From NCBI RefSeq assembly GCF_024700885.2, contig NZ_CP117016.1: a stretch of DNA of 64,000 nucleotides. One strand, 5' to 3'. Below are positions 2,049 through 2,865 of this stretch, piece after piece (positions within the stretch are counted from its first letter, which is position 1; each line of letters starts with the position of its first letter). The position numbers were made by a program, and so were the translations under genes. This DNA comes from Escherichia coli (GTDB taxonomy: Bacteria > Pseudomonadota > Gammaproteobacteria > Enterobacterales > Enterobacteriaceae). The notes under the pieces are model-generated. The model searched no databases and was not told where the DNA came from. It saw only the letters and a list, made by a program, of their open reading frames with translations.

Positions 2049-2539
2049 TCATGAGTCTTTTGAATGAAGTTCAGAAATTCATTGAAGCCCATCCGGGGTG
2101 TACTTCCGGAGACATTGCGGATGCTTTTGCAGGTTACTCACGGCAGCGCGTTCTGCAGTCAGCAAGCAAGTTACGTCAGAGTGGGCGTGTGGCTCACCGT
2201 TGTGAAGGAGATACACGCAGACATTTCCCACGCCTGACTGAGAGAGCGCAGGAGCCGGAACCACAACCAGTTCGTGAAACCAGACCTGTGCGCAATTTCT
2301 ATGTCGGCACTAACGATCCCCGGGTGATTTTGTGCCTGACCCGCCAGGCGGAAGAACTGGAGTCCAGGGGCTTATACCGTCGTGCTGCAACGGTGTGGAT
2401 GGCGGCATTCCGTGAAAGCTACTCCCAGCCAGAACGAAACAATTTTCTGGCGCGTCGTGAACGGTGTTTACGGAAAAGCAGTAAGCGGGCTGCATCAGGT
2501 GAAGAGTGGTATCTGTCAGGGAATTACGTGGGGGCTTAA
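2045..2539 (+). CDS. Hypothetical phage protein (possible winged-helix N-terminus)
   Basis: 164-aa ORF, stop overlaps next start (TAATG) suggesting translational coupling. Confidence 0.3.
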   Translation: MIMSLLNEVQKFIEAHPGCTSGDIADAFAGYSRQRVLQSASKLRQSGRVAHRCEGDTRRHFPRLTERAQEPEPQPVRETRPVRNFYVGTNDPRVILCLTRQAEELESRGLYRRAATVWMAAFRESYSQPERNNFLARRERCLRKSSKRAASGEEWYLSGNYVGA

Positions 2540-2865
2540 TGACGACGTTAACTCAATGCCAGCAGCAGGTGCTGGATATGCTGATTTCTTACCAGAAAGA
2601 ACGTGGCTTCCCGCCAACCAATCAGGAGGTGGCAACCATGCTGGGATACCGTTCGGTGAATGCAGCGGTGGAGCATCTTCGCGCACTGGAGAAAAAAGGC
2701 GTCATCACGATAAAGCGTGGCGTGGCCCGGGGGATAACGCTTCATACCGCGGTGAAGGACGACGACAGCGAGGCTGTCGGGATTATCCGCTCACTGCTTG
2801 CCGGTGAGGAAAACGCAAGGCTGCGTGCAACCCACTGGCTACATGAGAGAGGCCTGAAAGTATGA
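2539..2865 (+). CDS. LexA-like DNA-binding-domain protein (no peptidase domain)
   Basis: MTTLTQCQQQVLDMLISYQKERGFPPTNQEVATMLGYRSVNAAVEHLRALEKKGVI closely parallels the LexA N-terminal winged HTH; protein stops after the hinge (LLAGEE). Confidence 0.6.
   Translation: MTTLTQCQQQVLDMLISYQKERGFPPTNQEVATMLGYRSVNAAVEHLRALEKKGVITIKRGVARGITLHTAVKDDDSEAVGIIRSLLAGEENARLRATHWLHERGLKV

Follow-up and report, generated by a model that had tools for sequence, protein, structure and literature searches.

We analysed a stretch of 64,000 nucleotides of Escherichia coli DNA from contig NZ_CP117016.1 (hereafter the window), which carries a prophage gene encoding a stand-alone LexA-type DNA-binding protein (Table 1). 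The open reading frame (ORF) begins with an ATG at 2539, ends with a TGA at 2863–2865 and specifies 108 amino acids (MTTLTQCQQQVLDML...HERGLKV). As an earlier note on this DNA had proposed, the ORF is coupled to both of its neighbours: its ATG overlaps the stop codon of the upstream ORF (TAATG), while its own stop codon overlaps the rusA start codon at 2862 (ATGA). A GGGGG run resembling a Shine–Dalgarno sequence lies 5–9 nt 5′ of the ATG, and a consensus scan found no promoter upstream of the gene.

Table 1 Features of the LexA-like gene, its neighbours and the SOS boxes in the window
Feature	Position	Strand	Evidence and remarks
CTGT-N8-ACAG match CTGTAAGTAACCACAG (20-mer GGCTGTAAGTAACCACAGAG)	271–286		Inside ORF 168..1004; flanks and spacer poor
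PerC/ANR-like 'transcriptional activator', yfdN homologue, 164 aa	2045..2539	+	PHROG 1324, E=6e-78; NCBIfam ANR_neg_reg weak; RefSeq 'yfdN: PerC family transcriptional regulator'
Stand-alone LexA-type DNA-binding protein gene	2539..2865	+	108 aa; WP_000210170.1; PHROG 362; Pfam PF01726
Winged helix-turn-helix, residues 1–69	2539..2745	+	AlphaFold model; Foldseek 3jso/1lea, rmsd 0.8–1.0 Å, 51% identity; dN/dS 0.155
Variable low-confidence linker, residues 70–75	2746..2763	+	pLDDT <50 at residues 72–75; aligned family members differ here in both length and sequence
Family-specific helical hairpin, residues 76–108 (H76–88, H93–103)	2764..2862	+	pLDDT ~89; dN/dS 0.25
rusA, Holliday-junction resolvase	2862..3251	+	PHROG 34, E=8.5e-58; NF007305; 4-nt overlap with LexA-like gene
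KilA-N domain protein	3271..4080	+	Pfam KilA-N, residues 7–109, E=3.5e-22; variable neighbour, outside the conserved core
DUF968/His-Me-finger (HNH-like) protein	4082..5077	+	PHROG 96, E=3e-177
Q-like late antiterminator, end of early-right/nin block	5049..5843	+	PHROG 127, E=3e-108; Ayreon and SfV annotation
DNA-methyltransferase ORF	7127..8179		PHROG 67
Near-consensus SOS box TACTGTAAAAATAAACAGTG	7135..7154		Codons 3–9 of the methyltransferase ORF; candidate target (inferred)
DinI-family gene	35289..35537	-	PHROG 189, E=6e-31
Two SOS boxes, CTGTGTTTGTATACAG and CTGTATGAATAAACAG, promoter region of dinI-like gene	35553–35568, 35581–35596		Candidate targets (inferred)

The gene order in the window is rep, PerC-like gene, LexA-like gene, rusA, KilA-N gene, DUF968 gene and Q, with rusA followed by KilA-N as previously described, the latter recognized from its domain only. 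Across 254 loci, the LexA-like gene lies 5′ of rusA and/or the DUF968 nuclease gene, and of Q. The RusA ORF overlaps or directly abuts the LexA-like gene in 170 of these, mostly through the 4-nt ATGA, and the overlap persists in homologues of only 38–50% identity. RusA is missing from ~74 of the 254 loci, which have a 67-aa ORF at that position; on this ground, an obligatory partnership with RusA was reduced to a rival reading. DUF968, a nuclease that has been linked to recombination and grouped with RusA and Q (PMC5714182), lies downstream in almost every locus that extends far enough. KilA-N is a neighbour in ~97 of the 254 loci, with Rha/ANT proteins or nothing found elsewhere. Judged by gene order and overlaps, the LexA-like gene, which sits between the replication genes and Q, is predicted to share a transcript with the delayed-early genes of the nin region and to be coupled to them in translation. 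Such a position suggests that its product is made during lytic growth and not as an immunity repressor.

The gene is real, very common in prophages and already present in databases under a LexA-like name: the identical copy WP_000210170.1 is called "LexA family transcriptional regulator" in RefSeq, and the match to PHROG 362 is full-length (residues 1–108 against profile positions 1–106 of 106, E=1.1e-59). It was found in 2,232 (41%) of 5,426 complete E. coli genomes, with intact copies in thousands of genomes, and is carried by the phages SfV, SfII, cdtI and mEp460 as well as by Stx2a, Stx2c and Stx2k phages. All relatives that we found belong to phages of Enterobacteriaceae. A scan of one genome per species yielded one family member (Citrobacter, L094), the other matches being mostly true host lexA genes (Halomonas and others). 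Searches by concept, Pfam name, neighbouring genes and accessions (WP_000210170, NP_599074, YP_007112120 and ATE85518) returned no published functional study of the enterobacterial family.

A LexA-type DNA-binding domain and a helical hairpin

The 108-aa protein is a LexA-type DNA-binding domain that lacks the Ser/Lys peptidase. Residues 1–65 cover the whole of the Pfam model LexA_DNA_bind (PF01726, positions 1–65 of 65, E=3.8e-19), a profile comparison that the earlier note had recommended, and phmmer against the PDB retrieved the N-terminal domain of E. coli LexA (1lea, E=7e-16). An AlphaFold model (pLDDT 84) superimposes at 0.8 Å on LexA from the LexA–DNA complex 3jso over 67 residues with 51% identity; it comprises helices 6–22 and 28–35, a recognition helix (40–52) and wing strands (56–58 and 66–68). 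The resemblance over ~70 residues that had been claimed from the letters alone is thus borne out, and the phmmer alignment reproduced that of the recognition helix residue by residue. No Pfam match to Peptidase_S24 was found in the protein, its score against TIGR00498 (lexA) was 70.8, below the cut-off of 110.95 and restricted to model positions 1–91 of 203, and the chain stops at residue 108 without the Ser119/Lys156 dyad. The proposed absence of self-cleavage therefore stands. Since both the S24 domain and the RecA-dependent cleavage site are missing, the protein is not expected to be inactivated by DNA damage through the LexA route.

The DNA contacts of LexA, taken from secondary citations (PMC3091678 and PMC13416735), are S39, N41, A42, E44 and E45. 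Measured against these, the window protein retains four of five (S39, N41, A42 and E45) and has Val in place of E44. Among 131 unique family proteins, conservation is highest at S39 (0.93), N41 (0.93), H46 (0.91), K53 (0.99) and the wing residues R64, G65 and I66 (1.0). No family member has Glu at position 44, and E45 occurs in only 51% of the unique proteins, the largest Klebsiella subgroup having Leu there, which suggests that specificity may have drifted.

The C-terminal part had been read as ending shortly after a hinge-like LLAGEE segment. Instead, residues 76–108 form a conserved two-helix hairpin under purifying selection (dN/dS over 1,425 pairs, 0.25 for the tail and 0.155 for the DNA-binding domain). 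Its motif, EAvxxIRaLLxxxxxARxRAxxWLxxxG, is kept in homologues of 38–50% identity, with A97 (0.94) and L101 (0.95) near-invariant. In the window protein, A88-G89-E90 aligns with A84-G85-E86 of LexA; across the family, conservation at these three positions is only 0.37, 0.56 and 0.51, and they fall within a predicted helix. We therefore rejected LLAGEE as a LexA hinge, a cleavage-site remnant or a decoy for trans-cleavage. The hairpin is a putative dimerization element; a tandem-dimer AlphaFold run, in which a 30-residue Gly/Ser linker connected two copies and the alignment had 18 rows, yielded no confident interface, as judged by global scores alone (pTM 0.34, mean pLDDT 67). Taken together, the LexA-like protein is predicted to be a sequence-specific DNA-binding protein made up of a LexA-type winged helix-turn-helix (wHTH), a short linker and a family-specific hairpin.

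SOS boxes in the prophage and in sister clades

The window prophage contains 4 CTGT-N8-ACAG boxes where 0.41 would be expected. When the spacer in CTGT-Nx-ACAG was varied from 2 to 14, N8 was the most enriched and N10 a weaker second (3 against 0.48 expected). The two boxes that had been assigned to a dinI-like promoter were found there, and the gene belongs to the DinI family by its match to PHROG 189. The box at 7135..7154 was seen in 28 of 81 loci of the E. coli type. The early region from 1 to 5100 had been described as free of such boxes; it contains one match, at 271–286, which is probably weak or fortuitous. The boxes at 271 and 7137 lie within coding sequence. No SOS box adjoins the LexA-like gene in the window's own clade, and ~30 of 80 near-identical loci have no box within ±10 kb.

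Sister clades of the Klebsiella type carry an SOS box at most 1.5 kb upstream of the LexA-like gene in 72 of 90 loci. The box overlaps the -10 element of a TTGAnC-17-TACTGT promoter, located at 5297–5339 in locus L265; its CTGT and ACAG halves are invariant, while spacer and flanks vary (49 distinct sequences). This promoter leads into a dinI-like gene, phrog_1813 and the LexA-like gene in 68 loci, and at locus L335 into a protein consisting only of a RecA_C domain (Pfam E=1.2e-9), phrog_1813 and the LexA-like gene. Loci L089 and L335 combine an HTH-only repressor with the SOS-box operon. As a candidate split-off piece of an S24 domain, phrog_1813 was discarded: it has no Pfam or PDB match, and BLASTP against LexA gave E=0.12. 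Host LexA by itself accounts for the SOS-box promoters of the sister clades, which show how the gene is regulated, not what it targets. The linkage to DinI and RecA_C behind SOS boxes offers circumstantial support for the occupation of SOS boxes by the protein itself.

Candidate functions of the LexA-like protein

The best-supported reading of the LexA-like protein is that it may occupy SOS boxes. Specifically, we put at about 0.4 the probability that it acts as a RecA-insensitive LexA mimic on SOS-type operators during lytic growth. The hairpin would pair two chains, and recognition helices bearing the LexA contact residues would bind CTGT-type (SOS-box-like) operators. Repression of LexA-controlled promoters could then be re-imposed once host LexA has been destroyed, or their induction prevented during infection. 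Host SOS genes would be likely targets, as would the boxes associated with the phage's own dinI-like and methylase genes and, in rival prophages, antirepressors under LexA control. In the sister clades, placement of the gene behind an SOS-box promoter with DinI would create delayed negative feedback, as with lexA itself. This reading draws on the kept contact residues, the SOS-box operons in sister clades, the enrichment of N8 spacing and the precedent of gp6, a truncated, wHTH-only LexA homologue from the Bacillus thuringiensis tectivirus GIL01 that binds a palindrome at nanomolar concentration (Fornelos et al. 2018, PMC6182141). Counting against it, gp6 is the sole characterized analogue, and it has changed its target and activates transcription (PMC6182141); moreover, the tandem-dimer run yielded no confident interface, position 44 is never Glu, position 45 varies and no box lies beside the gene in the window's clade.

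A broader version, which we consider conceivable but somewhat doubtful, is that the RecA-proof mimic, dimerized through its hairpin, shuts SOS operators again in the presence of active RecA and forms an 'anti-SOS toolkit' together with phage DinI and stand-alone RecA C-terminal-domain proteins. If so, such a set of proteins would silence host genes for repair, mutagenesis and toxins, and would also block antirepressors that competing prophages keep under LexA control. As 41% of complete E. coli genomes and the Stx2a, Stx2c and Stx2k phages carry the gene, it would also affect SOS-dependent induction of Shiga-toxin phages and antibiotic-induced mutagenesis strain by strain.

The protein could instead be a phage-specific transcription factor, in which a LexA-derived domain recognizes an operator of its own and represses or activates one or a few promoters of the phage, such as nin-region, late or moron ones, leaving the host SOS regulon unaffected. 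We regard this main rival as a possible, though not a likely, explanation. It has a precedent in gp6, an activator of the late promoter whose binding site is GaCACAnnTGTGaC and not the box of host LexA (PMC6182141). The missing Glu at position 44 and the differences among subgroups at position 45 point the same way, as does the identity to E. coli LexA of only 51%, which indicates that capture was not recent; stand-alone LexA DNA-binding-domain proteins are, in addition, common in unrelated phages. However, S39, N41, A42 and H46 are retained family-wide, and E45 within the window's clade. No other conserved palindrome was found near the gene, Q already accounts for lambdoid late transcription, and the association with DinI and RecA_C downstream of SOS boxes is indicative of the SOS circuit.

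We consider it improbable that the protein is a DNA-binding accessory of a recombination and repair module formed by RusA and the DUF968 His-Me-finger nuclease, enzymes that it might target or restrain on DNA without any role in transcription. The case for such an accessory comes from the neighbourhood described above, namely the RusA overlap that outlasts divergence to 38–50% identity, DUF968 as the next gene in nearly all loci and the grouping of DUF968 with RusA and Q (PMC5714182). Yet ~74 loci have the 67-aa ORF and not RusA, and many unrelated genes keep their order in nin regions. Conservation peaks on the recognition helix and wing, as is typical of sequence-specific operator binding, and the protein is without a known partner-binding surface.

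The earlier note had also raised a non-inducible repressor module like those of Gifsy-type prophages; in this reading, the protein would keep the prophage silent as its immunity repressor until the neighbouring KilA-N protein inactivated it as an antirepressor. The idea would fit a LexA-like DNA-binding domain that has no cleavage domain and a KilA-N protein encoded two genes downstream; we nevertheless judge it very improbable. The gene lies within the nin region of the early-right operon and not divergent from cro, no promoter-like site precedes it, and most loci lack KilA-N. Phages with an identical gene have a separate 224-aa S24 cI, along with cro, so the LexA-like protein is not expected to serve as their immunity repressor; this cI was seen in Ayreon, SfV, mEp460 and E. 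coli 203740, and the window does not reach the immunity region of its own prophage. Least credible of all is a functionless, decaying remnant of a captured lexA, which would account for the truncated architecture but is at odds with purifying selection on both parts, an added tail kept at 38–50% identity, conserved position and translational coupling, and intact copies in thousands of genomes.

LexA cleavage is the switch of the SOS response, which drives prophage induction (including that of Shiga-toxin phages), mutagenesis and antibiotic tolerance. Acting as a LexA mimic, an uncleavable LexA DNA-binding half could reset or blunt this switch in about two-fifths of sequenced E. coli strains, and one prophage could silence the SOS-triggered induction of its neighbours.

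Comparison with known systems

The window protein resembles E. coli LexA (1lea and 3jso) in fold (0.8 Å), in sequence (51% over ~68 residues) and in S39, N41, A42, E45, H46 and the wing RGI. It differs in having no conserved Ala-Gly site and, at the position of E44, Val or another non-acidic residue. Whereas LexA dimerizes via its S24 domain, the hairpin is the only candidate for this role in the LexA-like protein. The free N-terminal fragment of LexA (residues 1–84) retains weak operator binding.

Other phage and bacterial LexA_DNA_bind proteins (in BFVD/UniProt, 'LexA repressor DNA-binding domain-containing protein') likewise lack the peptidase. These are mostly 65–90 aa and consist of the wHTH only, or carry two wHTH domains per chain (tandem forms P0153–P0163); among the stand-alone and tandem proteins retrieved, neither the EAvxxIRaLL...RAxxWL hairpin nor the rusA/DUF968 context was found. 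Gifsy-type and 186/N15-type phages, in which a non-cleavable repressor is paired with a LexA-controlled antirepressor, also tie phage regulation to SOS boxes, but the LexA-like gene lies away from the immunity locus and the window's phage type has an S24 cI. Repressors of the BlaI/MecI type similarly join a wHTH to a small helical dimer domain, and weak Foldseek matches were obtained to MecI (1okr) and Rv1846c (2g9w). There is no sequence relationship to these repressors; the match relies on a model of uncertain domain arrangement and offers an analogy for how the tail may work.

The closest characterized analogue is GIL01 gp6, which is 44% identical to B. thuringiensis LexA (PMC6182141). Both gp6 and the LexA-like protein are phage-encoded LexA wHTH domains without an S24 peptidase, both are expressed early in lytic growth (as suggested here by gene position) and both come from phages whose development is linked to SOS; gp6 binds its palindromic operator unaided. 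While gp6 is approximately a wHTH alone, the wHTH of the enterobacterial family is followed by a linker and a conserved hairpin of two helices. The two also differ in origin: gp6 derives from a Firmicute LexA, whereas the best solved relative of the window protein is E. coli LexA, and tblastn against 50,697 phage records gave no match to GIL01 or a Bacillus tectivirus at E<1e-3. Finally, gp6 recognizes a non-LexA sequence and activates a late promoter, while the enterobacterial family keeps the LexA contacts and leaves late control to Q. If the target nevertheless turns out to be phage-specific, the LexA-like protein would be only the second characterized stand-alone LexA-domain regulator, and the first with a dimerization tail of its own.

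A LexA DNA-binding domain with its own tail

The LexA-like gene is a genuine ORF, preceded by a GGGGG run at a spacing suited to a ribosome-binding site. As described in the earlier note, its ATG shares one base with the stop codon of the upstream ORF (TAATG) and its own stop codon is overlapped by the rusA ATG (ATGA). Residues 1–65 cover the entire Pfam LexA_DNA_bind model (E=3.8e-19), and among solved structures its closest relatives come from LexA itself, namely the E. coli N-terminal domain (1lea, E=7e-16) and the full-length protein. An AlphaFold model built from 65 homologues (pLDDT 84) superimposes on LexA as crystallised with its operator (3jso), with an rmsd of 0.8 Å across 67 residues (51% identity). 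No S24 peptidase domain was found in the 108-aa protein, which scored 70.8 against the NCBI LexA equivalog model (cut-off 110.95), covering model positions 1–91 of 203. These results bear out the initial reading of a LexA DNA-binding domain lacking its peptidase, and alignment to solved LexA gave the same recognition-helix pairing with host LexA. The recognition helix retains S39, N41, A42 and E45, four of the five LexA contact residues (PMC3091678, PMC13416735), while across the family conservation is highest at S39, N41, H46, K53 and the wing RGI. The E44 position is acidic in no family member, and Leu replaces E45 in the largest Klebsiella subgroup.

The protein had also been described as ending shortly after a hinge-like LLAGEE segment; instead, it carries a conserved tail. 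Following a low-confidence linker (residues 69–75), two helices (76–88 and 93–103) are predicted with pLDDT ~89, and the tail pattern EAvxxIRaLLxxxxxARxRAxxWLxxxG is kept in homologues at only 38–50% identity, with A97 and L101 near-invariant. The A-G-E resembling the LexA Ala84-Gly85 site is only 37–56% conserved among 131 distinct family proteins and lies within the first tail helix, which rules out a hinge stub. The hairpin holds nine or ten conserved hydrophobic positions and would most simply be a dimerisation element; a tandem-dimer AlphaFold run gave a pTM of 0.34.

SOS boxes around the gene family

We examined 254 loci, drawn from three viral-contig scans and eight exact-protein look-ups, typing neighbours with phmmer/hmmsearch profiles. 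In the Klebsiella-type sister clades, the nin region is interrupted and a new promoter restarts transcription. This promoter comprises a TTGA(A/C/T)C -35, a 17-nt spacer and (G/A)TACTGT-N8-ACAGT, with a near-consensus LexA operator covering the -10. CTGT and ACAG are invariant across 49 distinct promoter sequences, with varying spacer and flanks, and an SOS box lies ≤1.5 kb upstream of the LexA-like gene in 72 of 90 Klebsiella-type loci. The operon is led by a DinI-family gene (68 loci) or by a stand-alone RecA C-terminal domain protein (locus L335 and four others, Pfam E=1.2e-9), with a phrog_1813 protein next in 79/80 loci. Thus, the family is repeatedly placed under LexA control and bundled with RecA-acting proteins.

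The complete order is terminator, SOS-box promoter, optional DinI-family gene, phrog_1813 and LexA-like gene. The 95-aa L335 protein, essentially a RecA C-terminal domain (PF21096, residues 41–92), occupies the slot of DinI in related phages; it has homologues in L270, L291, L306 and L328, and phage SOS operons seem not to have been described before as containing a stand-alone RecA C-terminal domain. The phrog_1813 proteins (75–100 aa) had no Pfam or PDB match. As L089 and L335 encode YdaT and an HTH-only repressor lacking S24, we speculate that this small LexA-controlled protein could be the antirepressor of such phages.

Coordinates of features in the window and in related phage loci
Feature	Sequence	Coordinates	Remark
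ORF, 'transcriptional regulator'	window	168..1004	PHROG 3960
CTGT-N8-ACAG match GGCTGTAAGTAACCACAGAG	window	271-286	inside ORF 168..1004
PerC/ANR-like 'transcriptional activator'	window	2045-2539	PHROG 1324; RefSeq yfdN family
LexA-like gene	window	2539-2865 (+)	108 aa
rusA ATG	window	2862	
Q-like antiterminator	window	5049-5843	PHROG 127
DNA methyltransferase ORF	window	7127..8179	between Q and lysis genes
Near-consensus SOS box TACTGTAAAAATAAACAGTG	window	7135-7154	over methyltransferase codons 3-9
CTGT-N10-ACAG	window	19216, 28722, 34006	structural and tail genes
DinI-family gene with two SOS boxes	window	35289-35760	
prfC start	window	~35758	host gene
SOS-box promoter; operon	L265	5297-5339; 5297-5894	
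SOS-box promoter; operon	L089	5561-5580; 5561-5961	
SOS-box promoter; operon	L093	5562-5581; 5562-5951	
SOS-box promoter	L335	4908-4927	
RecA C-terminal domain protein	L335	4975-5262	leads operon
gp38, cI-like S24 repressor gene	mEp460 (L083)	4071-4718 (-)	mEp460 immunity type
Strong SOS-type box TACTGTTTTTACATACAGTA	mEp460 (L083)	4537-4552	5' part of gp38
TACTGTAAAAATAAACAGTG box	mEp460 (L083)	13588	methyltransferase gene start

Within the window, the prophage ends on the right with its DinI-family gene, which lies behind two SOS boxes and directly abuts prfC. The prophage therefore adjoins prfC with only its right two-thirds inside the window, the integrase and immunity region lying beyond. 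Four CTGT-N8-ACAG matches occur in its portion of the window versus 0.41 expected, a number attained in 1 of 200 shuffles. Among thirteen spacings N8 was the most enriched, with N10 a weaker second (3 versus 0.48 expected; 3/200 shuffles had as many). One N8 match falls within 1–5100, which had been thought free of such boxes; it looks weak as a LexA site, with poor flanks and spacer, and recurs in 26/81 E. coli-type loci because these have a gene module in common. The box at the methyltransferase gene start, present in 28/81 related loci, may act as a roadblock or internal promoter, or be coincidental. The gp38 box also occurs in 23 viral loci, and mEp460 has three CTGT-N8-ACAG boxes in 17 kb versus 0.25 expected. 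Many near-identical loci have no box within 10 kb of the LexA-like gene.

We tentatively favour, with a probability of roughly 0.4, a reading in which the protein acts as an uncleavable LexA that would shut SOS operators while the phage grows lytically. Hairpin tails would pair two chains into a dimer, the recognition helix would read CTGT half-sites, as its retained LexA contacts and most conserved positions suggest, and in the sister clades the protein may feed back on its own promoter. Counting against this are the non-acidic position 44, Leu45 in the largest Klebsiella subgroup and the box-free near-identical loci; moreover, the sister-clade promoters need no phage protein, since host LexA alone explains them. 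It is conceivable, if on balance unlikely, that the protein is instead a phage-specific regulator, for which gp6 of phage GIL01 is a precedent, showing that a LexA-type domain can switch target and even sign (PMC6182141).

Gene neighbourhood and the immunity question

Recurrent gene orders were gene–rusA(–KilA-N)–DUF968(–Q) in about 180 loci, dinI-like–phrog_1813–gene–67-aa ORF–DUF968 in 68 and gene–67-aa ORF–rusA–DUF968 in about 9. A RusA ORF overlaps or abuts the LexA-like gene in 170 of 254 loci (the ORF caller recovered the window-type 4-nt overlap in 121 of the 170), making RusA a frequent, not obligatory, neighbour. The near-constant neighbour is a DUF968 His-Me-finger protein, of a family described in PMC5714182. 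That the gene is an accessory of this RusA/DUF968 module appears improbable.

DNA methylase genes often lie upstream. In the window, the immediate neighbours of the coupled PerC/ANR-like ORF are the replication protein and the LexA-like gene; in SfV and mEp460 a dam gene intervenes between the two. PerC/Pch homologues regulate EPEC and EHEC virulence genes. The Q-like antiterminator contains zinc-finger repeats of the DnaJ type (CXXCXGXG), and its residues 123–191 weakly match the NCBIfam DnaJ and RtpA (anti-TRAP) models.

The interpretation in the earlier note is supported in part. As an alternative to SOS-box occupancy, it suggested a Gifsy-type repressor module and called the downstream KilA-N protein an antirepressor. 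The KilA-N domain was confirmed, but it is a variable neighbour (~97/254 loci). As the window begins within the early-right operon, the prophage's own immunity region is outside view; Ayreon, SfV, mEp460 and E. coli 203740, each with an identical or near-identical LexA-like gene, all encode an S24 cI-type repressor (215–224 aa) and divergent cro. Since the gene also lies between the replication genes and Q, and no promoter-like site was found in front of it, the Gifsy-type reading is unsupported and a role as immunity repressor highly improbable. Least probable of all is a relic: both parts are under purifying selection, dN/dS (Nei–Gojobori, 1425 pairs) being 0.155 in the DNA-binding domain and 0.25 in the tail.

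Prior annotation and characterised relatives

The gene is already annotated: PHROG 362 ('transcriptional repressor') matches end to end (E=1e-59), and RefSeq names the protein 'LexA family transcriptional regulator' (WP_000210170.1). Window 1200–5900 is 100% identical in Escherichia phage Ayreon, where the gene is a 'LexA DNA binding domain protein', and 97–98% identical in mEp460, SfV (orf42) and many Stx2c phages; tblastn also located the gene in SfII, SfIV, cdtI and Stx2a/2c/2k phages. It is carried by 2232 of 5426 complete E. coli genomes. Public names vary: some records have 'LexA-like protein', others the wrong 'RecA-mediated autopeptidases' or 'SOS-response repressor and protease LexA'. 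Records AB285204 (cdtI), LR595862 (phage 2H10) and MT225100 bear these or 'LexA repressor' on the same 108-aa protein despite its lack of a peptidase domain. Automated pipelines could be misled by such errors. A literature search, including look-up by accession number, found no functional study of the family.

The gene is of a known kind, a phage-encoded stand-alone LexA DNA-binding domain, in an uncharacterised variant that has a helical tail of its own and has kept LexA contact residues. This variant is very prevalent in E. coli and is repeatedly found alongside SOS-box promoters and proteins directed at RecA. Other phages, too, commonly encode short LexA-domain proteins. Five metagenomic proteins of 140–165 aa (P0153, P0156, P0159, P0161 and P0163) carry two tandem LexA DNA-binding domains and no peptidase, an alternative route to two recognition helices without an S24 dimer. 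Only one relative in kind has been characterised, GIL01 gp6, a LexA homologue that activates the late promoter P3 and has the palindrome GaCACAnnTGTGaC as its binding site (PMC6182141); gp6 consists of the wHTH alone, whereas the present family adds a helical tail.
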